Shown here: piece after piece, positions 4,614 to 44,592 of the stretch
Numbering within the stretch: the stretch's first letter is position 1
How the letters are laid out: each line of letters starts with the position of its first letter
Assembly (NCBI GenBank): GCA_944349925.1
Contig: CALVNT010000037.1
Location: 871-64,870, forward strand
Length of the DNA: 64,000 nucleotides
Reading direction: 5' to 3'
From: an uncultured Clostridia bacterium
GTDB taxonomy: Bacteria; Bacillota; Clostridia; Christensenellales; UBA1242
The notes under the pieces: generated by a model
What the model saw: only the letters and a program-made list of their open reading frames with translations
Told to the model about the DNA's origin: nothing
Databases searched by the model: none
Made by a program: the position numbers and the translations under genes

Positions 4614-7160
4614 TTATTCGCGAGCTTTAACAAAGCTTTCCATTGTTGAAATAAGTTTGTCAATTTTCTTGCTAGTTTCTTCGGAAGCCGCTGTTTGTTT
4701 TTGTGTCGCTTTAAGTTGTTCTTGTTGTAATTTATCACCAGTAAACTTAGTTTGGGCAGAAGCAATGTTTGCTCCAGGGAATGCTTTGTAAAGTGCTTCT
4801 CCAATTGTCTTGCCCAACTGAATAGATCCTTTGCTGAACGCTTCTTTCATGCCCTTCTTTACATAATCAGCAATCTCGTTTCCAGCCTTACCCAAAGCTC
4901 TAGCCTCTTTCTCAAGCTCTTTACGTTTCTCTTGACGCGCTTTATATCCACCATAAGGTTCATAAACTCGTCTCTTAACCGCATCATTTCCTTGAGCATC
5001 TTTACCTCTTGCAGCCAATGATAATTGTTTAATTTGGCCTGATAATTTGTCAACATTTAGACTCGCTGAAACATCTTTTGCAAAAAGTTTTAGTGGTCCA
5101 GTGACCATTCGCGCTGTATTCCAGAGCATAAGTGCTGCGCCTTTTGCAGTACCAGAACCATCTTCATGAAGATAATTTCTTGAAGCTTTGGTCTGTATTT
5201 TTTCGCTCAATTCTTTCTGCATCTCATTGAGTTTGGAAATACGCTCTTTGTTTTGATCTATTTCGCTGCTATAGAATTGAACTGAGTCATCTCTATCCAC
5301 TTCAGAATCAATATACGATTGTTTTCTTCTTGCCCACTTTTTATCTTTCTTGGCTATTTCTTCCTCAACGGCAGAATATGCAATATTGTTAGCTTCATCG
5401 TCCGACTTTCCTTTTCTCTTTGCATTGTCGAACGCTTCCATTTGTAACATTTGTAAATCTACATCAGCAGCAACTCTAGAATTAATATCCTCCTTATTTC
5501 TTGCTATCCAATCATTTTGAGCTCTTTCTCTTGCATCGTCTTTAGCATTGTCAAGTTTTTGCTGATTATTTTTCATTTCGTTATTTGTTTGCTCTATCTT
5601 ATTTTGATTTTCACTATACTCATTATTTAAATCTTTCAATCTTTTTTTTGCACGGTGCCTAAAATATCCCTTTACAGCGACAGCTCCTCCAAGCCCAAGC
5701 GTTCCAGCTGCTACAGCTCCCGCACCAACTGCAAGTTTTGTTCCCGAGCCTATTGTTTTTGCAACATTACTCTTAGCTCCTTCCCCCGTAGAGAACACAT
5801 CTCCTCCACCGACAAACCCAGACACGAGACTGATAAAATCTTTTGCCATAATTAGCCCTGTAGCCAAAAATACTATATTAACTATTGAATCTAAAAAGTA
5901 ATTATTAAAGAAAGAAATAGATTGTACAAAAGGCAATATTAAAAACAGAAGGTTTATGCCAACAATTGCTCCAAATGCGGAAAGAATTTGTTTAATAAAT
6001 TCATTTGACCAAGATTTAAAAGCTTTAAATTCATCCATAGGTGCTAATCCCAGTAAAGGAGGATAAATTAAAAACATCGCTGCAGATTTAATTAACCTCA
6101 TCATAAGGCCTATTATGATAGATATCATAATGCCAAAGCAAGACAAGGCACCTGCAAAAGCAATTATAAAGTTGAAATTCCACAAATCATAATAAATCCA
6201 AATTAAAGAAGTATTATATTTTGAAAAATGATTTATCGTTGTAACATTTGCTAAATCCAACAATTTGACATACATACCATAATCACAGGCTTGCTCTTTT
6301 AAGTCATAATATTTAACCCCTGTTTTGAATTGCAAATTATTAATAAAAGCATAATCAATTTGATAAGCCAAATACTCAGACTGATCTTCTGCGCTTTCAA
6401 ATCCCGGGCCTTCTCCCAAAACGTTCATACTTAAAACACTTTCTTTTATTTGAGAGACTGAATATTTTCCTGTTCTAACTCTATTACAATTATAAGCAGC
6501 AGATCTAAAAATTTGACCAAAAATTGGTGAATTTGTTGCAGGGGCACCTATTCCAAACATTTCATAAGAGGTGTAAATATTCTCTCCATTCCTTGTCCCG
6601 CTAGGAACAAACTCTGCCATAGCATTAGAACCATAAATTCCTGACAAAGACTCTTCACTTGTTGCGCCCGCAGTAATATTATCTAACGTTCTCAAAAGCA
6701 AACTTGATAATTGAAAACCGATAACAACCACAACAGGCACAATAACAAAAGTTATAGCAGATTTTATTGCATTATAAATGATTTTTGTTGGGTTTGTTTT
6801 TCCAGAATCTTCATTATAGTGCGATTTTATGATTGCAACAATTGAAGTTAAAGCGAGAAGAATTAAAGCAAAAATTGCAAGTGACCAAAAAGTTGTATTT
6901 AGCGCTTGCATTGTCCCAGAACTATTGCCAATACCTAAAATTCCGTTTATAAATTCTGTAAGTGGGTCTTGAAGTTCTACCGAAGAGCCGTTTACATAAT
7001 AAACATCTAATCCACAGAGTCTGCGAACCAACATTTGCATAGCATCAACAGCGCTTGCTATACAAGCAAAAAGCAAATAAATAACTTTTGGAATGACATC
7101 AACTAGCGTTCCTAAAGTGTCCCAAACACTCATTCCATTTAGTAATGAAAATGCGTTCAC
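4614..7160 (-). CDS. large polytopic membrane protein with Gly-rich segment and long K/E-rich C-terminal coiled coil; function unknown
   Basis: 848-aa ORF with GTG start preceded by GGGGGAAG. Multiple hydrophobic segments in the N-terminal ~480 aa, then a charged heptad-like tail. Confidence 0.6.
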   Translation of the reverse strand: MNAFSLLNGMSVWDTLGTLVDVIPKVIYLLFACIASAVDAMQMLVRRLCGLDVYYVNGSSVELQDPLTEFINGILGIGNSSGTMQALNTTFWSLAIFALILLALTSIVAIIKSHYNEDSGKTNPTKIIYNAIKSAITFVIVPVVVVIGFQLSSLLLRTLDNITAGATSEESLSGIYGSNAMAEFVPSGTRNGENIYTSYEMFGIGAPATNSPIFGQIFRSAAYNCNRVRTGKYSVSQIKESVLSMNVLGEGPGFESAEDQSEYLAYQIDYAFINNLQFKTGVKYYDLKEQACDYGMYVKLLDLANVTTINHFSKYNTSLIWIYYDLWNFNFIIAFAGALSCFGIMISIIIGLMMRLIKSAAMFLIYPPLLGLAPMDEFKAFKSWSNEFIKQILSAFGAIVGINLLFLILPFVQSISFFNNYFLDSIVNIVFLATGLIMAKDFISLVSGFVGGGDVFSTGEGAKSNVAKTIGSGTKLAVGAGAVAAGTLGLGGAVAVKGYFRHRAKKRLKDLNNEYSENQNKIEQTNNEMKNNQQKLDNAKDDARERAQNDWIARNKEDINSRVAADVDLQMLQMEAFDNAKRKGKSDDEANNIAYSAVEEEIAKKDKKWARRKQSYIDSEVDRDDSVQFYSSEIDQNKERISKLNEMQKELSEKIQTKASRNYLHEDGSGTAKGAALMLWNTARMVTGPLKLFAKDVSASLNVDKLSGQIKQLSLAARGKDAQGNDAVKRRVYEPYGGYKARQEKRKELEKEARALGKAGNEIADYVKKGMKEAFSKGSIQLGKTIGEALYKAFPGANIASAQTKFTGDKLQQEQLKATQKQTAASEETSKKIDKLISTMESFVKARE

Positions 7161-32899: not shown

Positions 32900-33416
32900 A
32901 ATCTTCTAAATATCGATCTTCACCATATTCTTTCATCCATTTTGATATTATGCAATCTTGCGGAAAGTCTCCTGCCGTCAAAAAATCAATAAGATTAACA
33001 AACTCTTTGGTTTCTGCAAATAAAACTTTCTGCAAGATTTTTACGGGATAAAATAGATCCATATCATTGTGCTTATAACTTAAAACTTTGCAGTCAAAAC
33101 TTTGGTCATTATCTATAAAAACATTGACGCCTTTATCATATAAAATTTTTTTGAATAAAAAAAGCTCTTGAGTGCTAGGTTCAATAAATTTACATCTTAA
33201 CAAAATGTTAAAAAAATCCATAAAAAACACAATAACATTTTCTAACGATAAAGATTCAAAAGCAAATCTTATTTTGGAAATATCGTTAGCAAATGAGAGC
33301 ATTTGTTTTGAGTTTTTAAAGCTAATGCTTTGCCAAATTTGTTTTTTAAGTTCACTTTGCAAAGTGACATATTTTTCTTCTAAAGAAATAGGTTTAATCC
33401 AATCTGAATGTTTCAT
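32889..33416 (-). CDS. hypothetical protein (175 aa)
   Basis: ORF with AAGGA SD; convergent with the previous gene and overlapping it by 11 nt. Confidence 0.5.
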   Translation of the reverse strand: MKHSDWIKPISLEEKYVTLQSELKKQIWQSISFKNSKQMLSFANDISKIRFAFESLSLENVIVFFMDFFNILLRCKFIEPSTQELFLFKKILYDKGVNVFIDNDQSFDCKVLSYKHNDMDLFYPVKILQKVLFAETKEFVNLIDFLTAGDFPQDCIISKWMKEYGEDRYLEDFNR

Positions 33417-33526
33417 AAAAATCCTTTTTTAATATGATAAAACAAAAATAATAAAAAAGTAAGAAGATTATTGTCGAAAAAAAAGCAATTTTGTCAATAA
33501 AAAAATAAAAAAAATACAAAAAACAC

Positions 33527-33555
33527 TTGAAAAAAGCAAACAAAATGTGTATAAT
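33527..33555 (+). promoter_or_regulatory. tRNA-Ser promoter TTGAAA-17-TATAAT
   Basis: Hexamers at 33527-33532 and 33550-33555, 16 nt upstream of the tRNA 5' end. Confidence 0.6.
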
Positions 33556-33571
33556 AGGCTTGTTAACAAAT

Positions 33572-33659
33572 GGAAGGATGGCTGAGCGGTCGAAAGCGGC
33601 GGTCTTGAAAACCGTTGATGTGAAAGCATCCTGGGGTTCGAATCCCTATCCTTCCGCCA
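33572..33659 (+). tRNA. tRNA-Ser(UGA)
   Basis: GGAAGGATGGCTGAGCGGTCGAAAGCGGCGGTCTTGAAAACCGTTGATGTGAAAGCATCCTGGGGTTCGAATCCCTATCCTTCCGCCA. Long variable arm, anticodon loop CTTGAAA, encoded CCA. Confidence 0.9.
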
Positions 33660-33706
33660 TAGACTTGTCCATCCGTACCAATTCTGGTATGGGTGGAATT
33701 TTTTAT
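33652..33706 (+). repeat. direct repeat copy 1 (attL-like): last 8 nt of tRNA-Ser plus terminator hairpin
   Basis: TTCCGCCATAGACTTGTCCATCCGTACCAATTCTGGTATGGGTGGAATTTTTTAT. A 12-bp stem (33669-33680 / 33685-33696) is followed by a T-run. Confidence 0.8.
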
Positions 33707-33771
33707 TAGATAATTTTATATAATTGCATTTATTTAAATTGTGATTTATAATAATTAAACGGAGAGATAAA

Positions 33772-34557
33772 ATGTTATATGATTATTCTAAAAATATTAT
33801 AATATGTGAAGATAGAAAGCAAGTTATTAATAGTAAAATATATTTTCAAATACAATGCATTCATGGTTATAAAGATATATATGCTAAGCGTTTTATAAAT
33901 AAAGGTGAATACGGAGGTTTTGTTCATTCAAGTATTTCGAAAATTACTAATTGGATTGAAGAAAATGACATTTTGGGTATGCCGATAACTGAAATTTGTT
34001 ATATCCAGAAAGTATCTTCTTATTGTAAATATAGAAAAAGTAATTTATTAAATCATGTAAATTTTGTTAAAGAATATGTAAATTTTTGTATGTATAATAA
34101 GAAAGGAACTTCTGAACATAGCAAAATAAATGCACATCTTTGGAATTCGCAAAGAATATTAGGGATGATAGAAGAATTAAAACAAAATGAAGAAATTATT
34201 ATTAATCAACATACTGAAATATCTGATGCAAAAAAAATAGTACTTTGGCTTCTTTTAGGAGCTATTTCTGAAGCAATTCTAAAATTACATATCATATTAA
34301 CGAGAGAGAAGTATAAAGATTTTGAAAAATCAGATTATGAAAAACTAAAAGTTAAAGATATAATAAATAAAATGTATGAACAAAAAGACATTTCAAAAGA
34401 AGATAGCATCTTTTTACATAAATTAAATGGCAATAGAAACATGATACATATATTAAATAACGAAAATATTTATAATTACGAAGAATATTGTATTGCAATA
34501 GATAATCTATTTCAAATATTAACAGATTTATATAATATACAAAAAAGTATGATTTAA
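33772..34557 (+). CDS. hypothetical protein (261 aa), first island gene
   Basis: GGAGAG SD; no family recognised. Confidence 0.5.
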   Translation: MLYDYSKNIIICEDRKQVINSKIYFQIQCIHGYKDIYAKRFINKGEYGGFVHSSISKITNWIEENDILGMPITEICYIQKVSSYCKYRKSNLLNHVNFVKEYVNFCMYNKKGTSEHSKINAHLWNSQRILGMIEELKQNEEIIINQHTEISDAKKIVLWLLLGAISEAILKLHIILTREKYKDFEKSDYEKLKVKDIINKMYEQKDISKEDSIFLHKLNGNRNMIHILNNENIYNYEEYCIAIDNLFQILTDLYNIQKSMI

Positions 34558-34573
34558 TAATACTTTGATCAAA

Positions 34574-34599
34574 AAAGAGAACAATTCTATTGTTCTTTT
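34574..34599. terminator. bidirectional terminator (end of the 10-gene operon and of the 33772 gene)
   Basis: AGAACAAT-TCT-ATTGTTCT hairpin with flanking A and T runs. Confidence 0.65.
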
Positions 34600-34609
34600 G
34601 TCAATAAAT

Positions 34610-35182
34610 TCATAAATCTAATTTGTATTTAATTGTATTAAAAGCAATCTCAAAAACCTCATTTTGCGATAAAAAAGATGTGTCTATTATTAAGTGCTTA
34701 AGTCTATATTTTTTAATATATTGAATTAATTTTTTTTCGTCTGCATTTAAAATAATTTCATTTTGCAAATCAGAATCATGCGGATTTCGTTTTAAAAGCC
34801 TAGTTTTTCTTATTTCTGGAGTTGCTGTTAATAAAATTGTAAAATCAGGCTTTCCAAAATTTTTAATTGAATTTTTAAATATAAATTCACTAACTTTATT
34901 GCCATTCCAATAATAATTTAATAGAGCATGCCTGTCTAAAATTACATTTTTATTTTTATAATATTCAAGAGCATAATTATCGCCTATTGACAAAAACATC
35001 GCAGTTAATAAACTGTTATTATAATTAATTACTTTTTCAGAAATTTTTCTATAATCATTTTCAGAAATGTCATATAACTTGCACTCAGGGTGTTTAACAT
35101 ATTCATATTTCAATTTTTTTGATAATTGTAGGGCAAGCGACGTTTTGCCAACTCCATCATGTCCTTCAATTGCTATAATCAT
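34610..35182 (-). CDS. thymidylate-kinase-family P-loop nucleotide kinase
   Basis: MIIAIEGHDGVGKTSLA (P-loop), LDRHALLNYYW (DR[YH] motif region) and PDFTILLTATPEIRKTRLLKR (lid/PD..L region). Confidence 0.7.
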   Translation of the reverse strand: MIIAIEGHDGVGKTSLALQLSKKLKYEYVKHPECKLYDISENDYRKISEKVINYNNSLLTAMFLSIGDNYALEYYKNKNVILDRHALLNYYWNGNKVSEFIFKNSIKNFGKPDFTILLTATPEIRKTRLLKRNPHDSDLQNEIILNADEKKLIQYIKKYRLKHLIIDTSFLSQNEVFEIAFNTIKYKLDL

Positions 35183-35778
35183 TGTCCTTCTCTCCTTAAT
35201 AAAAATTTAGTTAATTTTTTATACAAATTGTCCTCATATAACAAAGTTTTGCAACCAGCTGTTTGTGGGTTTTTTATATCCATTTCCCAATTGTCACCAA
35301 TATGTAATATTTCTTGTGGGTCCATTTTAAACATAGTAGCTAATTTTTTAAATGCTATTGCCGGTTTACCTGCAATATGGAAATCTTCCAATGTTGATAT
35401 ACAAGTTTTAAATAATGCTTGATACTCTCCAAGTTCAAAATCTATAAATGTATGAGTAGTAGTAGAAAATATTACGCAAGGAATTTTACTTTTACTTATA
35501 AAGTCTAATATTTTTAAATCAAGTTTGGGTTTATCTATTTTTTCAAGCTCATATTTAGTATTAAAATTTAAAAGATTTTCCCAATATTTTTCATCATAAT
35601 ATTTAAAATCATACTTTCCTACTTCGTTAAAAAAAATTTTTAGATTGTCCTTTGCTTCTTGTATGCCAATATTATAATGCTTTGCGTATTTTTCAGGTAA
35701 AATTTTTAACCAGAATGTGTCAGAAAAATTGGAATTTGAAATAGTTCCTTGCAAATCAAAGCTTATTAATTTTATCAT
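35179..35778 (-). CDS. HAD-superfamily hydrolase (phosphatase-like)
   Basis: Motif I FDLQGT (Gln at Asp+2) and motif IV HIGDNWEMDI. Confidence 0.65.
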   Translation of the reverse strand: MIKLISFDLQGTISNSNFSDTFWLKILPEKYAKHYNIGIQEAKDNLKIFFNEVGKYDFKYYDEKYWENLLNFNTKYELEKIDKPKLDLKILDFISKSKIPCVIFSTTTHTFIDFELGEYQALFKTCISTLEDFHIAGKPAIAFKKLATMFKMDPQEILHIGDNWEMDIKNPQTAGCKTLLYEDNLYKKLTKFLLRREGQ

Positions 35779-36299
35779 CTTTTCTCCTTAACTTTTACAA
35801 GTGAGAAAATATCATATTCTTTTAAATCTTTTCTTCCATTTAAATATTCTAGCTCTGTTATATACACTAAAGCATTTACTTTTGCTTTTTGTTTTTTAAC
35901 TAGGTTAATTGCCGCCAAGCTAGCACCACTTCCAGCCATAATATCATAAATTATAGCACAATTATCATTCTCAATTAATGCGTCTACTTTTAATTGATAT
36001 TCAGCTTTACCGTATTCTTTGATAAATTTTTCGCTATAATAATCACCAGGAATTAAATTTGGCTTTCTTATAAGAACTAAAGGCAAGTTCAATAAATGGG
36101 CGATGATTGAACCAATAGTAAATCCTTTAGATTCTATAGCCACAATTTTTGTTATTTTTTTGTCTTTTAAAAACTCTAAAATTTTATTTATTGCCATATT
36201 TCTTGCACTTACATTTTTAAGTAGATAAGTAAAATCCCAATATTTAACACCCTCTTTAGGGAAATTGTCGTAACCTTTTACAAATTTTTCAAACTCCAT
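35775..36299 (-). CDS. adenine-phosphoribosyltransferase-like protein with altered PRPP loop
   Basis: Collinear with Apt: YDNFPKEGVKYWDFTYLL, ITKIVAIESKGFTIG, VLIRKPNLIP, EYGKAEYQLKVDAL. The PRPP loop IIYDIMAGSGAS replaces VVDDLLATGGT. Confidence 0.7.
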   Translation of the reverse strand: MEFEKFVKGYDNFPKEGVKYWDFTYLLKNVSARNMAINKILEFLKDKKITKIVAIESKGFTIGSIIAHLLNLPLVLIRKPNLIPGDYYSEKFIKEYGKAEYQLKVDALIENDNCAIIYDIMAGSGASLAAINLVKKQKAKVNALVYITELEYLNGRKDLKEYDIFSLVKVKEKR

Positions 36300-36304
36300 A
36301 AATA

Positions 36305-36919
36305 TTATTCCTCCATAAGTATTGCTCTTGATGGACCAGCATCAATGCCAGTTACTTTAATTGGTAAGCAAATAAGTTTATATTCTTTTTCAACCGTGTC
36401 TTTTAGCCTCAGATTATCTAAACAAATAATGTTTTTTTCCATAAAAATTCTATGTATTTTACATTCTCCATTTCTTTCAAAACTTTGATAATCATAACCT
36501 ACAAGAATTACACCCAAATCCCTTAGATATTCTGCTGCATCTTCTGTCAATGCAACATGTTCAGGATTGTATTTTTCCATTTTATCATATGAATTTTTAG
36601 TTTTTAAAAGTATTCTTTTTAAGTAAATATCTTTTTTCTGTAAGTCTTTTTTAGTTATCATATCATCTGCTTCTGTTAAATCTAACACTTGACAATCACC
36701 AATCAATACTTCAAATGGTACTTCATCACTTTTCCATTTATCATTAAACAAATAATACGGAGCATCTATGTGCGTTCCGGCGTGAGCACCAAAATCAAGC
36801 CACGTAAAGTTAACTGGTGCATCCGGTATTCGAGCTAATCGAATTAGCTTTGGTGGCTCATCATCTTTCCAGACAATAGTGCGTTCATTAAGCTCCATTG
36901 ATATATCAATAATATTCAT
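36305..36919 (-). CDS. cyclase-family protein (kynurenine-formamidase-like metal hydrolase)
   Basis: FGAHAGTHIDAPYY signature of the putative cyclase / KynB family. Confidence 0.7.
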   Translation of the reverse strand: MNIIDISMELNERTIVWKDDEPPKLIRLARIPDAPVNFTWLDFGAHAGTHIDAPYYLFNDKWKSDEVPFEVLIGDCQVLDLTEADDMITKKDLQKKDIYLKRILLKTKNSYDKMEKYNPEHVALTEDAAEYLRDLGVILVGYDYQSFERNGECKIHRIFMEKNIICLDNLRLKDTVEKEYKLICLPIKVTGIDAGPSRAILMEE

Positions 36920-38159
36920 AGATCTCTCCTAACTTTTTATTTATTCTTTTTAGCCAATTGATTCTATATGTACTAAATTTTTTTAGTATTTGATTTAAAA
37001 TGAATAATCTATATTTTTTATATTTTCTTAATATACTTTCTGAATATTTTATATTGCATTTTAATTTTTCAAAAGCATTCCAATAGTCAAGGTGGTTTTT
37101 TACTGGCATAGGTGACCATGCTGGCGCATAAATTTCAAAAACTTGATCAAGAAAATCATAATATTTGGAAATGCCATATAACTTAAACTCTAAATCTTTT
37201 ATAATATATCTGGCAATATCTTCAATTCTAATATAGTTTCTTACTTGTTCTTCTACGCAGTTAGATTTTAATTTTGATAATAAATCATTTTTTAAAATAT
37301 AATCTTTTATTGTTTTATAAAACGCCTTACAATTTTTGCCTTCATTTAACACATTTAACAAATCATCTAAATAAATTTTTTCAAATGTATCGGCAGAATA
37401 AAAATAATAACCTATTAAATCAATTCTGTTTTCAAATGGATAAGCCCCATTGGTATAGCACTCTAACTCTGTCTCTTTGCTATAAAGCGTGAATGCAATT
37501 TTATCAACTAAATTTGGTTTTTCTAAAAACATACAGAATGCGGAAAGTTTAAAATCTGGCTTAATATTAAATAATTTAGCAAATAAATTAAAGTTCCTAA
37601 TGATAGTTCCTGCGTTTATATATTCGTCAAAAACCAAAAATTTAGAATTAAAAAATTTAGATAATTTTGTACCATATAAAACTTTATTAAATTGTTTCAA
37701 TATATTATAATTATAATCAAAATTATCATTTATGCTATCTATAATTGTAAATGGTTTTTTCTGTATTAAATTATCCAAATTTGTTTTGTCGCATAAATTT
37801 TTTAAATAATTGCAACGGGGAAGTAAATGATTATTAATTAGTACGTTTTGATTTAATTCAGTTTTGCTAAGATACAATTTAAACCAATCAAACAAATTAA
37901 AGTTCAAATCTCTTGGAATTTTGAGCTGTATAAAGTTTATATCTGAAACTTTATATTCAGGTAAGAGTGTGATAATTTTAAATAAAGGTGCTGTTCCACT
38001 TTCAATAAAAATTACATTTTTGTAATTTGACTTAATAATTTCATCAAAAACCATTTGAGCCATTTTTATTGACTGTTTGTCGTCTTTGTATTTAAATCCA
38101 CGACCAAAATCCTCATTAATAAATTTTGATAAATTATCAATTTTTCCATATGGATTCAT
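36906..38159 (-). CDS. orphan 417-aa protein with a possible PRTase-like PRPP motif
   Basis: FLVFDEYINAGTIIRNF resembles the hhhhD[DE]xxxxGxT PRPP loop; otherwise unrecognised. Confidence 0.35.
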   Translation of the reverse strand: MNPYGKIDNLSKFINEDFGRGFKYKDDKQSIKMAQMVFDEIIKSNYKNVIFIESGTAPLFKIITLLPEYKVSDINFIQLKIPRDLNFNLFDWFKLYLSKTELNQNVLINNHLLPRCNYLKNLCDKTNLDNLIQKKPFTIIDSINDNFDYNYNILKQFNKVLYGTKLSKFFNSKFLVFDEYINAGTIIRNFNLFAKLFNIKPDFKLSAFCMFLEKPNLVDKIAFTLYSKETELECYTNGAYPFENRIDLIGYYFYSADTFEKIYLDDLLNVLNEGKNCKAFYKTIKDYILKNDLLSKLKSNCVEEQVRNYIRIEDIARYIIKDLEFKLYGISKYYDFLDQVFEIYAPAWSPMPVKNHLDYWNAFEKLKCNIKYSESILRKYKKYRLFILNQILKKFSTYRINWLKRINKKLGEIYEYY

Positions 38160-38161
38160 AT

Positions 38162-38818
38162 TTACTCCTTTGCAATTTCAATGAAATTTTTAATTTTTTC
38201 AAAATCTTTTCTATCTTTTTTTAGATAAGTATCGCTGAAGGTGCTAACACCAGTAGATACATCAACACCATATGGCTCGGTTGTTTTAATTGCACCTTGT
38301 AAATTTTGTAGATTTAAACCGCCAGCAATAAAAGAAGGTTTGTTTGTTGATTTCAATAAAATTGATGTTCGTATCCAATCATTTTCTTTGCCCGTTCCAC
38401 CAGTATAATCAAGATTTCTAGAATCAAATAAAAAGTAATCACAATAAGGGTAATAAAGCTTCATTCTGCTTTCTGCATCATTATAATTAGAAACAATTGT
38501 TTTGATAATTTCCCCTAAGAAATTTTCTCTAACAATTTTTATCTGCTTTTCATCAATATCTTCTGATATTTGAATACCTGTACACTTTATATATTTAGCT
38601 AAATCCAAAATGTCCTCAGCATTTAATAAGTGCGTAACTAAAAAGCTTTTAACATTTTTAGGAAATTTTTTTATAGTTTCACGAACCCATTGAGCGTATG
38701 GTTCGACCTCAACAGGCAAAACTTTTCCACCCATAACAAATCCTATACAATCTGCTCCGAGTTTTATCGCATTTAAAGCATCAATTTCGTTACTTATTCC
38801 ACATATTTTAACTTTCAT
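38162..38818 (-). CDS. phosphoribosylanthranilate-isomerase (TrpF/PRAI)-like TIM-barrel protein
   Basis: MKVKICGIS..AIKLGADCIGFV, TGGTGKENDW, FIAGGLNLQNL and YGVDVSTGVS are collinear with TrpF. No other trp genes are nearby. Confidence 0.7.
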   Translation of the reverse strand: MKVKICGISNEIDALNAIKLGADCIGFVMGGKVLPVEVEPYAQWVRETIKKFPKNVKSFLVTHLLNAEDILDLAKYIKCTGIQISEDIDEKQIKIVRENFLGEIIKTIVSNYNDAESRMKLYYPYCDYFLFDSRNLDYTGGTGKENDWIRTSILLKSTNKPSFIAGGLNLQNLQGAIKTTEPYGVDVSTGVSTFSDTYLKKDRKDFEKIKNFIEIAKE

Positions 38819-39656
38819 TTTCTTTTACCTCATAATTATAAACTTCTTTTAAATATTCACCCCACAAACCATCATCATTTCCGCTTTTAGTTTTTAACTT
38901 AGATAAATTGTCAATTGAACCGCGATCGATAACACCATTTTCAGTTACTTCACATAAATTACCATTACCATCAACAAATACATCATAATCGTTTTCAATT
39001 TCAAAATCTTCTTCAACAATAATGCTGTTTTTATAATTTTCTTTGACTTTTTTCATTAAAATTTCATAGGCATCTTTATCTACTTCAAATCTTTTACGAT
39101 AATCTTTTCCATATCCACTGGCGAAAAATTTTCCTAATTTCCAACTTAAAATTTTACTATTCATTAGAGTAAACATATTAGGGATATCATTAATATTCTC
39201 TTTGCCAACCATAGTATTTATTTTAATTTTTACTTTTGGATATTTGCTTGATATATAGTCAACTAGTTTTAAAACATGTTCATGATGATTTTCAAGCGCA
39301 CAGGGACGCATTTTATTATGTATCATAGGGTCAAATGAATCTAATGGCAGATTAATTGCATCTATATAATTTAAAACATCTTCTTTTTGTGGAAGTAGTA
39401 TGCCATTGGTTGAAATTATTGTCATCAATCCCTTGTCTTTGCAATACTTAATTATTTCTATAATATCATCCCTTACAAGTGGATCTCCGCCTGTAAGATT
39501 TATAGCTTTTAAGCCATTGTCAATTAAAACATCTATAACATGTTTTGCCTTTTGTGTACTTATTTGTTCACGATTAATTCTCCAATCAGAAAAGCAAAAT
39601 TCGCAATTCATATTACATCTGCTTGATATTTCAAAACAAGTGTAAACTATTTTCAT
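38808..39656 (-). CDS. radical SAM enzyme, viperin/MoaA-like (no auxiliary cluster)
   Basis: CNMNCEFC (CxxxCxxC), INLTGGDPL, IISTNG, LPLDSFD, IKINTMV, SWKLGKFF. 282 aa with no C-terminal Cys cluster. Confidence 0.65.
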   Translation of the reverse strand: MKIVYTCFEISSRCNMNCEFCFSDWRINREQISTQKAKHVIDVLIDNGLKAINLTGGDPLVRDDIIEIIKYCKDKGLMTIISTNGILLPQKEDVLNYIDAINLPLDSFDPMIHNKMRPCALENHHEHVLKLVDYISSKYPKVKIKINTMVGKENINDIPNMFTLMNSKILSWKLGKFFASGYGKDYRKRFEVDKDAYEILMKKVKENYKNSIIVEEDFEIENDYDVFVDGNGNLCEVTENGVIDRGSIDNLSKLKTKSGNDDGLWGEYLKEVYNYEVKENES

Positions 39657-40753
39657 AAATCCTCCTTAAAAATATTTTCTATTTCATTTTTTACTCTTTC
39701 ATAATCTTCTTTAAAAGTTGTTAAATCCCCATTAATATCTAAATGATTAAACTCACTTCCTCTTTGGGTTGCTTCAGTCGAACCTGCCATATTTACAGCA
39801 CCTATAGATTTTACCCTTGTAATGTTATAGCCGAACTTTTCCATAGCTTTAATTTTTAATGGATTATTTGTCAACATAACAACATTTTTATTTGCTTGTA
39901 TAAAGTCCATAATAATAGGAGTTATATTATATCCAGCACCATCGTTTTCTTTTCTTGGATCTCCTTCAATGCCGATAGTAGTAAAGCCTCCATACATTGT
40001 TGTTTTATAGGTTTGTTCTGCACTATATTCACCTCTGTGACGCATTGAAGCTCGCTCACTTAAATCAAAAACAAATTCATCTTTTGTATAGCCGCTACCC
40101 ATTCCATTTTGAGAATCAATATGCATCAAAACAAATCCAATTTTACTGATTTTACTATAAATATGTTTGCCTTCGCTATATTTAAATTGTTCTTGCACCC
40201 AATGTTCAAAAGCATCTCCATTATCAAATTTAGGTGGCGTGATTTCATTAAAAGTCGCTGATAGTTCTCTGATATTTTTCCATTGATAATAACAATTGCA
40301 TCTTTGAGAACCAAACAAGAATGATGGCGTACAAGCAGATTCTGTTCTTAAAACAATTTTATTATCGTAAATATTGCCTACAATTCCAACGTTTGCATAT
40401 TCCATGCCAATCATGGGATTATAAATACACAAACCAATGTGTCTTACTAGATGTGGTGTTTCATTTTTCTCTGATAAAGAAAATAAAGTTGCACCTTTAT
40501 TGGCAATAATTAAGGACTTTGTTTTTTTATGAATTGCAATATCATATAAATTCATTAAATCACCAGTGGCTTTGTTTTGATCTAGCCCTGTTATAAAATT
40601 TAAAATTATCTTATTAAACATATTTCTATCTTTGATATTCCAAACAGGTGAATTGTCATTTGGAACTTTATCTAATACTTCGATATAAATTTGTCTTATT
40701 CTTTTTATCCTAGATAAATAGTTATTTATTCCGTTTTCAATTTTATCTTTCAT
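39653..40753 (-). CDS. GTP cyclohydrolase II-family protein, divergent, with ~130-aa N-terminal extension
   Basis: RTESACTPSFLFGSQRCNCYYQ (three Zn-ligand Cys as in RibA C..RCDC) and VVMLTNNPLKIKAMEKFGYNITRV (RibA LLTNNPRK..L...G). Confidence 0.65.
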   Translation of the reverse strand: MKDKIENGINNYLSRIKRIRQIYIEVLDKVPNDNSPVWNIKDRNMFNKIILNFITGLDQNKATGDLMNLYDIAIHKKTKSLIIANKGATLFSLSEKNETPHLVRHIGLCIYNPMIGMEYANVGIVGNIYDNKIVLRTESACTPSFLFGSQRCNCYYQWKNIRELSATFNEITPPKFDNGDAFEHWVQEQFKYSEGKHIYSKISKIGFVLMHIDSQNGMGSGYTKDEFVFDLSERASMRHRGEYSAEQTYKTTMYGGFTTIGIEGDPRKENDGAGYNITPIIMDFIQANKNVVMLTNNPLKIKAMEKFGYNITRVKSIGAVNMAGSTEATQRGSEFNHLDINGDLTTFKEDYERVKNEIENIFKEDL

Positions 40754-41300
40754 TTTTTTCTCCTAAATTATTTTCAAAATTTTTAAAGATTTGGTTTAAT
40801 CTTTCATATTCATCTACATGCGGGAATATATTGCTACTTCTATCGTGTTTGAAAATTTCTGCCATTTCAAAATATTGGGCACATTCTACTTCTTCTTGTT
40901 GATATCTTAAATCTTCAAGATTAACATTTTTTTTCAATACAAATACATCTACAAATTCTCTGCTTACTATGTCTTTCCAAGCAAAATCTTCTTTAATTGT
41001 GAATAGAAATTTAAAGTCTTTGGGCTTCAATTTTAGCCCTAATTCTTCTTCTCCTTCTCTAATGGCACTAATAAGTGATTTTTCTCCCGCAGCAATGTGA
41101 CCAGCAAAGGAACAGTCCCAGTAGTTTGGGAAAAATTTCTTTTTAGCACATCGTTTTTGCATTAATATTTGATTTTTATCATTTACAATCCAAACATGTA
41201 CGCTTTTGTGCCAAAGCCCTTTTTTGTGAGCTATAGCTTTATCAATTACTCCTTTACAATTACCATTTTCATCATACCAATCAATTAATTCATGCTCCAT
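40743..41300 (-). CDS. NUDIX hydrolase
   Basis: Intact Nudix box GHIAAGEKSLISAIREGEEELGL. Start at MEHELIDW after AAGGAG. Confidence 0.8.
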   Translation of the reverse strand: MEHELIDWYDENGNCKGVIDKAIAHKKGLWHKSVHVWIVNDKNQILMQKRCAKKKFFPNYWDCSFAGHIAAGEKSLISAIREGEEELGLKLKPKDFKFLFTIKEDFAWKDIVSREFVDVFVLKKNVNLEDLRYQQEEVECAQYFEMAEIFKHDRSSNIFPHVDEYERLNQIFKNFENNLGEKNER

Positions 41301-41899
41301 TCTTTTTCTCCTTTTTCTTGTGATATTTCTGGTAGTGGCAGAAAGCCACAACATATAACTGGGGTGTTTTCTGCATTAAAATTTAAATTATCATCATTTA
41401 TCTTGCCTTCCCTTAAAACAGACAGACATCCAGTAATTTTAAAACCTGCTTGATTTGAGAAGTTTTTCATAAATTTAAATGTTGATCCAGTTGAATATAC
41501 GTCATCTACAAATAAAACATTTTTATTTTTCAACTTTTCATATTCTGTTTGCGAAACATAGTACTCGCTTTTGCCAGATGTAATACTTTCGCCATCAATA
41601 GATATTGGATTTAACATATAGCACTTTTTACTTTTTCTTAGACATACATAGTCACAATTAAGATATCTCGCAACTTCTTGTGCGATTGGCAATCCTTTCA
41701 ATTCGGTGGTTAAAATTATGTCGTATTTAATACCTTTCGTTATAGTTTGATAAGATAGAGATTTGCCCGCTTTTTTTAATAATTCCATGTCGCCCACCAA
41801 ATTAAAACCAGCAATATATATGCCACTTGGGGTTTTCAAAATAGGCAATTGTCTTTTTAGTCCTAAAATATTTAGCTCATAAAAATTATTTTTTTTCAT
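41285..41899 (-). CDS. type I phosphoribosyltransferase
   Basis: PRPP loop VLFVDDVYSTGSTF. Start at MKKNNFYEL after GGAGGG. First gene of the operon. Confidence 0.75.
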   Translation of the reverse strand: MKKNNFYELNILGLKRQLPILKTPSGIYIAGFNLVGDMELLKKAGKSLSYQTITKGIKYDIILTTELKGLPIAQEVARYLNCDYVCLRKSKKCYMLNPISIDGESITSGKSEYYVSQTEYEKLKNKNVLFVDDVYSTGSTFKFMKNFSNQAGFKITGCLSVLREGKINDDNLNFNAENTPVICCGFLPLPEISQEKGEKEWSMN

Positions 41900-41949
41900 A
41901 TTTACCCTCCTAAAATATACTGTCTTTATTGACTTCGGCATTGTATTTT

Positions 41950-41998
41950 TTTATACGGTGTCAATATGACACTATCAATATATCATAGCATTAGTGTC
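41950..41998. promoter_or_regulatory. operon promoter (minus strand TTGATA-17-TATAAA) with palindromic operator in the spacer
   Basis: -10 at 41950-41955 and -35 at 41973-41978. Perfect palindrome GTGTCA-ATA-TGACAC at 41958-41972. A further inverted pair is GACACTA (41969-41975) / TAGTGTC (41992-41998). Confidence 0.55.
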
Positions 41999-42120
41999 TT
42001 GTCAACAATTTTATTAAAAATTTTTTAATATTTTTTGTTAAACCAAAAAGTGTTAAATCTACACTAAAAGACTTTACTTTATTTTTTAAATGTTATATAA
42101 TCCTGAAAAGGATATAATTT

Positions 42121-42762
42121 ATGGAATTTAGTAACAAATATGAAAAACAAATGATCTCAGTTGATATTTGCATGTTTTCAATAATAGATAATAAATTAAA
42201 TGTTTTACTTGCGAAAAGAGCTGAAGATCCATATAAAAATATGTGGAGTTTAATTGGCGGTGGAGTTTATAATGACGAAACGTGTGAAAACGCTGTAAAA
42301 AGAGAATTAGCCGAAAAATTAGATATTCATGATATTTCACCTATTCTTTCGAGTGTTTTTAGTGAACCTAAAAGAGATATTAGATTTAGAAATATATCAA
42401 TATCATATTTTTGTTTAGTAAATTCTTCAATAGCACATAAAATTAACACAAAAAAAGTTTTAGAAGTAAAATGGAGTGAAGTATATAAAATTACAAAATT
42501 GGCATTTGATCATAACGATATACTAAATAAAGCAATTAACCAATTAAAGGAAAAAGCTTTTGATATTGATTTCATGAAACCTTACCTACCTAAATATTTT
42601 ACTTTATCCACACTTCAATCAATATTTGAAAGTATTCTGCAAACGAATTTAGATAAAAGAAATTTTAGAAGAAAGTTAAATTCTTTAAATTGTTTAATTG
42701 ATACAGGTGAAAAAAACGAATTAGACAAACATAAAAAATCTGTTATTTATCAATTAAAATAA
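42121..42762 (+). CDS. NrtR-like Nudix-related transcriptional regulator
   Basis: N-terminal Nudix fold with degenerate box (GGGVYNDETCENAVKRELAEKLDI). C-terminal winged-helix signature FTLSTLQSIFESILQTNLDKRNFRRKL...SVIYQL. Confidence 0.7.
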   Translation: MEFSNKYEKQMISVDICMFSIIDNKLNVLLAKRAEDPYKNMWSLIGGGVYNDETCENAVKRELAEKLDIHDISPILSSVFSEPKRDIRFRNISISYFCLVNSSIAHKINTKKVLEVKWSEVYKITKLAFDHNDILNKAINQLKEKAFDIDFMKPYLPKYFTLSTLQSIFESILQTNLDKRNFRRKLNSLNCLIDTGEKNELDKHKKSVIYQLK

Positions 42763-43182
42763 AGCACCTTATTAACCTTTTTTCTCTTTTTAATAAAAAT
42801 TAAAAAAAACACTATATAAACTGTTTCATTTAGATAGAGCTCTTTACTTATATAATTCCATTCTAGCCAAAGATGTTTAAAGCATCTGTAAGCCAATTTA
42901 ATGCTATACCTGTACTTAAATACTTTGATTAACCCCTAAAGGACAAGTCCCAAATAACACGACTAAAATAACGATTAGATTAATTAAGATTATGTTTTAA
43001 ATCATAGAACGCTAACCTTTAAATTAGGGTCATTAATGTTTGTTCCGTTACTTGTTCTACTTATCTTTGATTGCTGGCAATATTACTGCCAAACCATTAA
43101 CATATTTGTTCACGAAAATTCAAACCATTTACTGAACAAGCAATAACAACAATTAAACAAAATAGGGCAACAGCAAAACAAA

Positions 43183-43532
43183 ACCAATGACAATATTTAT
43201 TTATACTTTTAATTTATCAGACATACCCCTTACTTATTTAAAAGCATAATAAGAAGCATTTTATCCGAACTTCTAAATGGCTTAATTTTACATTCACAAA
43301 CAGATAATTTTCAAGCATAGATAATTAGATACATTTACGAACAATATGCAAAAAATGTTTATGTTAAAAACATAACAGAAAATATAACAAGTAAAGGTAT
43401 TTACTGTCGTGGGAAACTTTTTTAAAAAATGCAGTTTACAGAATACTAAAAAATGAAAAATATTCAGATGTGTATCATTACAATGATGAAGTGTTTAAAA
43501 ATATTTATCCACAAATTATTCCTAACGATTAA
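43183..43532 (+). pseudogene. decayed large-serine-recombinase fragment (recombinase domain only)
   Basis: Frame A reads ..HTPYLFKS..LILHSQTDNFQA*IIRYIYEQYAKNVYVKNITENITSKGIYCRGKLF. After a frameshift in a T6A6 run it reads KNAVYRILKNEKYSDVYHYNDEVFKNIYPQIIPND*. This matches the PYGY ... IF..Y ... G..W....V..IL.N..Y.G pattern. Two in-frame stops, one frameshift, no Zn-ribbon or coiled-coil part. Confidence 0.55.
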
Positions 43533-43682
43533 ATCATAAAAAATTTAGTCGTTTTTGTTGTTAAATTTAAAATGAAATTTTACAAATTATTCAAAAACTA
43601 TTGCAATTTTTTATATTCTTAATATATACTATGTATATATTAAAAGTTAAAAGGAAGGAGTGTTTTTATGGATACGCACGCT

Positions 43683-43735
43683 TTCCGCCATAGACTTGTC
43701 CACCCGTACCATTATGGTATGGGTGGATTTTTATA
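43683..43735 (+). repeat. direct repeat copy 2 (attR-like), also a functional-looking terminator hairpin
   Basis: TTCCGCCATAGACTTGTCCACCCGTACCATTATGGTATGGGTGGATTTTTAT. Differs from copy 1 by one stem transition, the loop (ATTC vs TTA) and one A. Confidence 0.8.
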
Positions 43736-43914
43736 ATGTTATATTAAATTTAGTTTATTATACAATTTAAACTATTAAATAATTTTGCAATATAATCAAT
43801 TGATCTTTTCTCATTTATAGATAATTGTTTATACTAATAATTATTTATTTTCTTTGACATTTTTAAAAAAATAAATATACTTTAATTGATAATATTTTTA
43901 TAAGGAGGAAGATT

Positions 43915-44592
43915 ATGTCTGAAACTGAATACAATAGAATGCCATTAATTGGCGATAAAGCTCCAGCTTTTAAAGCAACAACAACACAAGGAGAAATCAA
44001 TTTCCCTGCAGATTTTTCTGGTAAATGGGTAATATTATTTTCTCATCCTGCCGACTTTACACCTGTTTGCACAACTGAATTTATGACTTTTGGCTCTATG
44101 ATTGATGAATTTAAGGCATTAAACACTGAACTAGTTGGTTTGTCTGTAGATTCACTATATTCACACATAGCATGGCTTAGAAAAATTCAGGAACTTGAAT
44201 GGAATGGTAAGAAAAATGTAAATGTAACATTTCCTTTAATTGAAGATATAAAAATGGAAGTTGCAAAAGCATATGGCATGATTCAGCCTGGTCAATCAAC
44301 AACGCAAGCTGTTAGAGCGGTATTTATCATAGATCCAAAGGCGACCATAAGAACTATTTTATACTATCCGCTTTCAACTGGCAGAAACTTTGACGAAATA
44401 AAAAGAATCATACAAGCACTTCAAAAAGCTGATAAAGATAGCGTTGCCACACCAGCTGATTGGAGACCGGGAGATGATGTTATTGTTCCAACAGCCGGAA
44501 GCTGTGGCGTTGCAAAAGAGCGAATGGAAACACAAAATGATGACCAGTATTGTTTAGATTGGTTTATGTGCTTTAAAAGAGAAAAAAAATAA
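43915..44592 (+). CDS. peroxiredoxin (AhpC/TSA family, Prx6-like)
   Basis: FSHPADFTPVCTTE active site. AAGGAGGAAG SD and a TTGACA-16-TATACT promoter at 43854-43881. Confidence 0.88.
   Translation: MSETEYNRMPLIGDKAPAFKATTTQGEINFPADFSGKWVILFSHPADFTPVCTTEFMTFGSMIDEFKALNTELVGLSVDSLYSHIAWLRKIQELEWNGKKNVNVTFPLIEDIKMEVAKAYGMIQPGQSTTQAVRAVFIIDPKATIRTILYYPLSTGRNFDEIKRIIQALQKADKDSVATPADWRPGDDVIVPTAGSCGVAKERMETQNDDQYCLDWFMCFKREKK

Follow-up and report, generated by a model that had tools for sequence, protein, structure and literature searches.

Which event placed 10 kb of AT-rich, operon-bearing DNA between a tRNA-Ser gene and a peroxiredoxin gene in an uncultured Clostridia bacterium (Christensenellales, UBA1242)? 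This island lies in a stretch of 64,000 nt of contig CALVNT010000037.1 (assembly GCA_944349925.1), here called the window, whose positions are used throughout unless another contig is named, and it is bounded by two copies of a segment of ~52 nt (33652-33706 and 43683-43735), the first of which begins inside the tRNA gene. A first-pass annotation had read the two copies as attL and attR, left by site-specific integration with duplication of a tRNA 3' end. As argued below, window 33660-43690 is very probably a non-autonomous integrative cassette from a family of large serine recombinase (LSR) elements that insert at the 3' end of tRNA-Ser. The features that define it, with P and P' for the arms assigned to the element and B and B' for those assigned to the chromosome, are as follows.

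33572-33659, plus strand: intact tRNA-Ser(UGA) (ARAGORN, tga; Rfam tRNA, 56.9 bits), the body of which forms arm B, the chromosomal side of the left junction
33652-33659, plus strand: core copy 1, TTCCGCCA, the last 8 nt of tRNA-Ser and left limit of the mobile unit
33660-33706, plus strand: island-borne arm (P'), a terminator hairpin (stem 33668-33697) with T-run
43312-43528, plus strand: LSR relic, codons ~171-243 (Recombinase domain), with an in-frame stop and a frameshift
43524-43682, plus strand: element arm (P) of the right junction, the former 3' untranslated region (UTR) of the LSR gene
43683-43690, plus strand: core copy 2, TTCCGCCA, where the mobile unit ends on the right; none of the other-host copies is homologous beyond 43690
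43691-43735, plus strand: terminator hairpin (stem 43698-43728) of the chromosome (arm B'), which keeps its place beside the peroxiredoxin flank regardless of the sequence upstream
43915-44592, plus strand: 1-Cys-type peroxiredoxin (PF00578, 1.5e-33; NF009668, 333 bits, above cut-off), the first gene of the right flank and outside the island

The repeat pair at tRNA-Ser

The two repeat segments read exactly as the first-pass annotation had quoted them, and copy 1 starts, as it had stated, with the last 8 nt of an intact tRNA-Ser(UGA), which both ARAGORN and Rfam place at 33572-33659 and which is preceded by a promoter-like TTGAAA-17-TATAAT at 33527-33555 (promoter scan). Neither program found a tRNA or tRNA-like match near or before 43683, in agreement with the statement that copy 2 has no tRNA body in front of it. 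In the manner of a tRNA island, the locus has an intact tRNA-Ser at one end and the displaced last 8 nt of the gene, without a tRNA body, at the other (43683-43690).

The ~52-nt segment occurs in these two copies only, with zero copies expected by chance; its first 20 nt, when up to 3 mismatches were allowed, matched twice in the 64 kb, and 0 of 100 dinucleotide-preserving shuffles gave any match. A repeat search splits the pair into two pieces of 97% and 88% identity. Both hairpins fold stably (copy 1, -21.0 kcal/mol, z -4.8; copy 2, -23.8 kcal/mol, z -6.5), each is followed by a T-run, and they are the top two terminator-like sites found by a terminator scan of 33400-44000, the P' hairpin now serving as the terminator of tRNA-Ser.

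The same island in other hosts

When the relic fragment of the recombinase was used as a query, a 62-aa open reading frame (ORF) was found on 20 contigs. Contigs L034-L043 and L046-L053, assembled from metagenomes of the chicken gut and elsewhere, contain the island at 99.4-99.8% identity next to a different right flank, which encodes small unknown proteins, Vut_1, GDPD and Spo0A_C proteins and a sigma factor and is without the peroxiredoxin gene. Positions 306-10347 of L034 correspond to window 33652-43690 at 99.6% identity, that is, from the first T of core 1 to the last A of core 2, and beyond the right core L034 continues with ATAAAAGCCTAAATCGACAGCATAGTTTGATTTGGGTTTTATTTT, an unlike terminator-type hairpin (-14.3 kcal/mol), and then with unrelated genes. 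The P' arm, in slightly varying form, accompanies the island in L034, L046, L051 and L044. In contigs L055 and L056, the last 32 nt of the P arm together with the core (41 nt in all) are joined to two further, differing hairpins, and core copy 2 precedes four different flanks in four contexts. As in an LSR element, where a short core is identical and the arms otherwise differ, only TTCCGCCA is common to element and flanks in L034, L055 and L056, while in the window's species another 44 nt are alike.

From these homology limits and from the joins in L055 and L056, we conclude that the mobile unit runs from core to core, that the crossover would fall within the 8 nt TTCCGCCA, and that the copy 1 hairpin belongs to the island (P') and the copy 2 hairpin to the chromosome (B'). 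The remaining ~44 nt of the repeat are a likeness of the island's own terminator arm to the chromosomal terminator and not a duplicated target. The first-pass reading is therefore kept in part: site-specific integration at the repeats is borne out by the same 10 kb in a second context, delimited to the base by TTCCGCCA cores, by an island less diverged than its flanks and by its absence from one sample (run X2, see below), whereas the duplication of a tRNA 3' end shrinks to a shared core of only 8 nt and the enzyme is an LSR, not the classical tyrosine integrase that such a duplication had implied.

A putative source of recombinase was found in the other host. Read from left to right, L034, L037 and L046 show the intact LSR, the P arm, TTCCGCCA and the P' arm of the island, so that two elements stand in tandem. 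The intact LSR has 500 aa with Resolvase, Recombinase and Zn-ribbon domains (PHROG 95 'integrase', 1e-106), and its stop codon is followed by a 165-nt 3' UTR and then directly by TTCCGCCA and the P' arm of the island. Occurrence of the same 10 kb at other loci without repeats had been named in advance as an argument against integration; the other locus does have the core repeats, and an intact recombinase besides. Phage collections contained distant relatives of the LSR only (at most 35% identity in phage records and at most 24% in IMG/VR), and the P arm was not found in IMG/VR.

A relic of the recombinase gene

The translation of 43312-43529 in two frames (...IRYIYEQYAKNVYVKNITENITSKGIYCRGK / KNAVYRILKNEKYSDVYHYNDEVFKNIYPQIIPND, followed by a stop) matches PF07508 (Recombinase), the Pfam family for the central domain of LSRs. 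At 91.7% nucleotide identity, window 43312-43528 aligns with codons ~171-243 of the intact 500-aa LSR gene (L046), and 43524-43690, comprising the 3' UTR and the core, matches the sequence downstream of the intact gene's stop at 96.4%. The first ~510 nt, which encode the catalytic domain, and ~780 nt of the 3' half (~260 C-terminal codons) are missing, and searches with the intact LSR (tblastn and blastn) gave no convincing remnant of a catalytic domain in 42763-43311. Hence, the window has at its att site only a ~73-codon relic, where L034 and L046 have an intact three-domain LSR 165 nt from the core, and judging from this alignment the relic is a deleted copy of the 500-aa LSR gene, unable to act. 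Lacking the catalytic domain, the cassette would presumably be unable to move by itself.

An independent deletion derivative of the same LSR gene is present at positions 55-289 of L055, where an internal piece of 96% identity jumps to the 3' UTR, indicating that recombinase decay recurs in this element family. Contig L013, from another metagenome-assembled genome (MAG), carries an intact LSR of at least 527 aa that reads straight into the same site sequence. We considered whether LSR ORFs running through the att site, in L013 and in a small ORF of the window (MDTHAFRHRLVHPY...), encode a functional C-terminal extension, and rejected this, since the frame in L009 is already closed by a stop 22 codons earlier and that of the L046 LSR ends 165 nt upstream.

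Divergence and presence of the island within the species

Contig L044 represents another strain of the window's species and spans both flanks, which allowed differences from the window to be counted by segment.

Left flank: 47 differences in 4867 nt, 9.7 per kb
Island: 15 differences in 9976 nt, 1.5 per kb
Right flank: 25 differences in 2411 nt, 10.4 per kb

The island is ~7-fold less diverged than its surroundings, the last left-flank difference being at 32924 and the first right-flank difference at 43810, and the same pattern was seen with L007 (0.44 compared to 5.2 per kb). Between the two hosts compared, there were 0 differences across window 35686-40799 (5.1 kb). In run X2 the flanks are covered at 4-6x and the island at ~0x, while X3 and X23 carry the island. 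The same B' arm is found at the same position behind other upstream sequences, namely an LSR-like 3' end in L009 and a third sequence in a contig of X8. The island has a GC content of 26.6% compared to 30.8% for the rest of the window, so the higher AT content that the first-pass annotation had estimated by eye is real but modest; the lowest-GC 10-kb interval of the 64 kb begins at 34001, and island-free intervals of that length range from 28.6 to 32.3%.

Taken together, the steps in single-nucleotide differences, the 5.1 kb without a difference, the coverage in X2 and the GC content show that the island is a unit with its own recent history, which has been gained or lost within the species and is shared between different bacteria. 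They also point to a very recent exchange of its 10-gene operon between different chicken-gut bacteria.

Proposed mechanism and points against it

As the locus now stands, the hairpin of the island's left arm has taken the place of the native terminator behind tRNA-Ser, the native terminator has ended up beside the peroxiredoxin gene, and the decayed LSR gene and its 3' UTR form the right end of the cassette. We propose that strand exchange would take place inside TTCCGCCA. For its movement the cassette probably depends on an intact LSR of this family acting in trans, like the one that sits in tandem directly upstream of the island in another host. On this scheme the empty site would read ...GAATCCCTATCC-TTCCGCCA-TAGACTTGTCCACCCGTACC..., with a C in the stem to mark the chromosomal arm behind an intact tRNA, and the excised circle would read ...GGATACGCACGCT-TTCCGCCA-T(AG/GA)ACTTGTCCATCCG....

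Several results speak against this interpretation or leave it incomplete. A clean empty attB, in which tRNA-Ser, the copy 2 hairpin and the peroxiredoxin gene follow one another, was not recovered from 31-mer Logan contigs, which cannot bridge a 52-nt repeat, and the circular junction was not recovered from these contigs either, the apparent joints being short low-complexity artefacts. Both searches suggested by the first-pass annotation, one among relatives for a tRNA-Ser directly before the peroxiredoxin gene and one among reads for an excised junction, thus ended without a find. Support for mobilisation is indirect, coming from the near-identity of the island in two flank contexts and from its low divergence in L044, and no excision product was seen. 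The contigs of the second host end inside the upstream element, short of any tRNA-Ser, and a dyad-symmetry scan for the crossover dinucleotide did no better than shuffles. Finally, serine recombinases need no long identity between element and target, and the 44-nt likeness of island arm and chromosomal arm is unusual for such enzymes and is not explained by the model; on one reading, the family may have evolved in the window's species and copied its terminator.

The exact pattern of the empty site matched once in GTDB genomes, in L013, which is the LSR end of another organism at the same site, and had no match in JGI metagenomes, and a 16-mer scan of IMG/VR gave chance matches only. In X2 the 3' half of the tRNA differs from that of the window, and one contig runs into another hairpin. 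An X2 contig of 1104 nt (window 33593-33669) carries tRNA-Ser with three differences, then TAGACTTGTC and then another hairpin (GTTTGAACTCAAAC...), and may be the left junction of another element in an island-free strain.

Alternative explanations

The likeness of the two hairpins could also have arisen if the copy 2 hairpin were the P' arm of an older, almost fully deleted cassette, in which case the 52-nt repeat would record two successive insertions at one site. Such a history would fit with the 10 nt after the core (TAGACTTGTC) being common to the island arm, copy 2, L013 and another junction in X2, with the chromosomal arms of the three other hosts resembling each other (A(T)AAAAG...) and not copy 2, and with the tandem arrays that do form in this LSR family. 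However, no second P arm or core was found between copy 2 and the peroxiredoxin gene, the right flank is as diverged between strains as the left flank, and every strain seen carries the same arm. We consider an older cassette unlikely on balance, although worth keeping in mind, and it changes a detail of the LSR-cassette model and not its substance.

More distant from that model is a classical tRNA island, in which a tyrosine integrase made the long repeat and was then lost and the LSR relic is a passenger unconnected with the insertion. Repeats of ~50 nt that include a duplicated tRNA 3' end are indeed typical of tyrosine-integrase islands, and on contig L001/L045 a tyrosine integrase is joined to the operon. 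Yet that integrase is attached inside the gene for a GTP-cyclohydrolase-II-like (GCH-II-like) protein, beside tRNA-Ile and away from the island ends, and a Phage_integrase domain (PF00589) was found in none of the ORFs of the island. Moreover, the repeat is only 8 nt long in other hosts, and LSR relic, 3' UTR and core make up one conserved module, seen elsewhere with an intact LSR and in front of four different flanks, which leaves this explanation largely refuted and, in our view, very improbable. Scarcely credible at all is an origin without any site-specific event, by local duplication of a terminator or by homologous recombination of the 10 kb via its flanks; terminator-like hairpins can recur and the relic is non-functional today, but an identical unit, its limits set to the base by the core, is found between unrelated flanks, a second copy of the 20-mer is not expected by chance, and the density of single-nucleotide differences rises immediately outside the repeats, which is not expected of recombination mediated by the flanks.

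Relation to known element types

Understood as an LSR cassette, the island resembles several documented systems. Like cis-mobilizable elements (CIMEs) and the accretion arrays of integrative conjugative and integrative mobilizable elements (ICEs and IMEs), it has lost its recombination genes while attL and attR are kept, and it stands in tandem with a recombinase-encoding element for the same site: it has no functional recombinase, both cores and arms are conserved across copies, and the autonomous neighbour using the same site is seen in L034, L037 and L046. A scenario of decay followed by accretion has been described for cis-mobilizable elements of Firmicutes in the excerpt of PMC5704250 considered here, and the same excerpt states that IMEs at tRNA 3' ends mostly encode a tyrosine recombinase, while those with a serine recombinase mostly disrupt dispensable genes. 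The present case differs from these IMEs in combining an LSR with a tRNA 3' end as target and an intact tRNA; the recombinase type of CIMEs is not stated in that excerpt.

Staphylococcal cassette chromosome (SCC)-type cassettes use LSRs, carry variable cargo, insert at the 3' end of a conserved gene between short direct repeats, form tandem arrays and include members without a recombinase (PMC10581047), and the island is like SCC and ccr-less pseudo-SCC in those features of cassette insertion. On the other hand, it has a single recombinase gene where SCC have CcrAB, CcrC or CcrDE, its target is tRNA-Ser and not rlmH or rimL, and its host is an uncultured low-GC chicken-gut bacterium. The intact LSR is not a Ccr (CcrB model, 136 bits compared to a cut-off of 900), which places it outside SCC. 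By analogy, the cassette would move in a way akin to that in which CIMEs and ccr-less SCC cassettes are thought to move. With Islander-type islands of tyrosine integrases it shares the intact tRNA, the 3' fragment at the far end and the atypical composition, in contrast to which it has no tyrosine integrase, and the tRNA contributes no more than 8 nt to its repeat, the remainder lying downstream of the gene.

The island is a well-documented but fairly ordinary kind of mobile element. What is gained is that a repeat noticed by eye has become a base-accurate map of core, element arms and chromosomal arm, and that the recombinase family most likely to move the cassette has been identified. Evidently, serine-recombinase cassettes can use a tRNA 3' end without damage to the gene, since the cassette brings a replacement terminator.

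Gene content of the island

The contents given in the first-pass annotation, a recombinase relic, a regulator (here found to be NrtR-like) and an accessory operon (here found to have ten genes on the minus strand), were correct. The operon spans 34610-41941, and 42763-43682 is a region of ~0.9 kb without long ORFs. Besides the junction features listed above, the island contains the following, where PRTase stands for phosphoribosyltransferase.

33772-34557, plus strand: 261-aa ORF without family match
34610-35182, minus strand: nucleotide kinase, dTMP/CMP-kinase-like, last gene of the operon (PF02223, 9.5e-13; PADLOC VakA, 5e-11, and PDC-M51B, 3e-14)
35179-35778, minus strand: HAD-family phosphatase (PF00702, PF13419; HAD-IA)
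35775-36299, minus strand: adenine-PRTase-like (APRT-like) type I PRTase (NF002636, 140 bits, above the cut-off of 125)
36305-36919, minus strand: cyclase or arylformamidase-like hydrolase (PF04199, 2.7e-19; TIGR03035, 125 bits, below the cut-off of 223)
36906-38159, minus strand: 417-aa conserved protein of no known family (no Pfam match; N-terminal half weakly PRTase-like, C-terminal half helical)
38162-38818, minus strand: TrpF-like enzyme of the phosphoribosylanthranilate-isomerase (PRAI) fold (PF00697, 4.6e-18; all NCBIfam PRAI models below their cut-offs)
38808-39656, minus strand: viperin-like radical SAM enzyme (PF04055; NF038283 viperin_w_prok, 105 bits, below the cut-off of 180; PADLOC pVip, 4e-32)
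39653-40753, minus strand: divergent GCH-II-like protein (PF00925, 26 bits, just above the cut-off of 23.3)
40743-41354, minus strand: Nudix hydrolase, IDI/YfcD-like (PF00293, 4e-15)
41285-41941, minus strand: second type I PRTase, first gene of the operon (PF00156, 4e-11; NF005592, 142.5 bits compared to a cut-off of 143)
42121-42762, plus strand: NrtR-like regulator with Nudix and winged-helix domains, divergent from the operon (PF21906, 3.5e-19; PF00293; NtrR model, 115 bits, below the cut-off of 400)
42763-43311, no strand: non-coding stretch, without a long ORF in six-frame translation

A promoter-like site at 42005-41977 precedes the first gene of the operon (promoter scan), and an Rfam scan found no riboswitch or further Rfam family within or beside the island. 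The 261-aa ORF (33772-34557) had no match in Pfam, NCBIfam, PADLOC or PHROGs; a frameshift shortens it to 192 aa in the other-host copies (L034 among them), and in a third variant of the island it is replaced. The APRT-like protein is identical in both host contexts.

The cargo operon

The cargo is an NrtR-regulated set of nucleotide-type enzymes. Three proteins of the operon have a PRTase fold, including the 417-aa protein, which has at least 135 homologues at 40-54% identity, none of them with a functional name. It contains an invariant FDEYINAGT motif resembling a phosphoribosyl-pyrophosphate (PRPP) loop, and its AlphaFold2 model (pLDDT 93) gave HGPRT in Foldseek with an E-value of 3.5e-3 at a low TM-score, while a sequence search of the PDB gave no match. 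The best PDB matches of the radical SAM enzyme are viperins (4e-14). As its score against NF038283 (105 bits) lies below the cut-off of 180, the enzyme falls outside the viperin family, which it resembles without belonging to it. The pairing of a viperin-like radical SAM enzyme with a VakA-like kinase in the same operon is like that of pVip and kinase defence loci, from which the island differs in scoring below the curated cut-off and in setting the pair in a 10-gene operon of nucleotide enzymes.

A core of the operon, consisting of the genes for the GCH-II-like, TrpF-like and 417-aa proteins, the cyclase, the APRT-like PRTase and the HAD phosphatase, recurs in unrelated MAGs, Patescibacteria included, at 40-80% protein identity, and the GCH-II-like protein is 60-73% identical to orthologues in unrelated MAGs. 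Of three MAG contexts that were compared, two (L029 and L030) have an NrtR-like regulator adjoining the core, with a NAD synthase gene nearby in L030 and an adenylosuccinate-synthase-like gene in L029, and no tRNA-Ser or LSR stands beside the core there. In the cluster from Patescibacteria (L032/L033) the core is without the radical SAM gene. In L029, at 6110-6289, a 59-aa peroxiredoxin fragment, 60% identical to the peroxiredoxin of the window, lies immediately upstream of that contig's NrtR-like gene and operon homologue; a peroxiredoxin gene adjoins the island in the window too, which may be coincidence or history.

GTP cyclohydrolase II and TrpF can bypass FolE and FolQ in pterin synthesis in Chlamydia (PMC4161248), a precedent that makes a stepwise pterin-type route conceivable for the cargo. 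A different cassette ends with the same 32-nt P arm and TTCCGCCA in L056 (ERZ1643249 NODE-3096, 14.9 kb). Its cargo is DISARM-like, with DrmA (8e-165), DrmB (2e-58), NERD and UvrD helicases, a radical SAM protein of 674 aa and a HATPase_c_3 protein, and no recombinase was found within 14.8 kb. This DISARM-like sister cassette makes a defence role of the window's cargo conceivable as well. We speculated if the P arm and TTCCGCCA are the mark of a tRNA-Ser cassette system of uncultured gut bacteria, in which one LSR serves interchangeable cassettes across species, the window's cassette carrying an undescribed, widely transferred, nucleotide-derived pathway to a pterin-type compound or an antiviral nucleotide analogue; as a whole, this broader proposal is a long shot that we would expect to fail in more cases than it holds. 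Literature searches gave nothing on the operon, which is a reasonable target for metabolic or phage-defence work.

Variants of the island and other elements at the site

The left arm of the island (33660-33706) is a mosaic among copies, which carry TAGACTTG or TGAACTTG, the loop AATTCT or ATTAT, and one extra A. Copy 1 of the window has TAGACTTG, as copy 2 does, L044 and the other-host copies have TGAACTTG, and the other-host copies have the loop of copy 2. Such a pattern points to gene conversion, or to exchange with the chromosomal arm on more than one occasion.

In L011 (1-500), from a relative whose flank proteins are 38-66% identical to those of the window, downstream of the syntenic tRNA-Ser(tga) lie another hairpin and the end of a convergent LSR-like gene, the last codons of which overlap the tRNA 3' end. 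Within this group, the tRNA-Ser site thus seems to be a hotspot for serine-recombinase elements, the one in L011 having the opposite geometry.

In four contigs (L035, L036, L040 and L047) homology with the window begins only at 34591, left of the kinase gene, and a 170-aa gene and a PcfK-like gene of 202 aa replace the 261-aa ORF and the left arm, as if the operon had been joined to a larger and perhaps conjugative element. Two contigs of sample BRZ_CH depart from the window inside the GCH-II-like gene at a shared CTGATAAAG (window 40465-40477; L001 1-2940, L045, L005 1-65), and one branch carries a duplicated 104-nt unit, tRNA-Ile, an adenylosuccinate-synthase-like gene and the tyrosine integrase mentioned above. 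The branch reflects either an assembly chimera or the insertion of another element at a secondary site.

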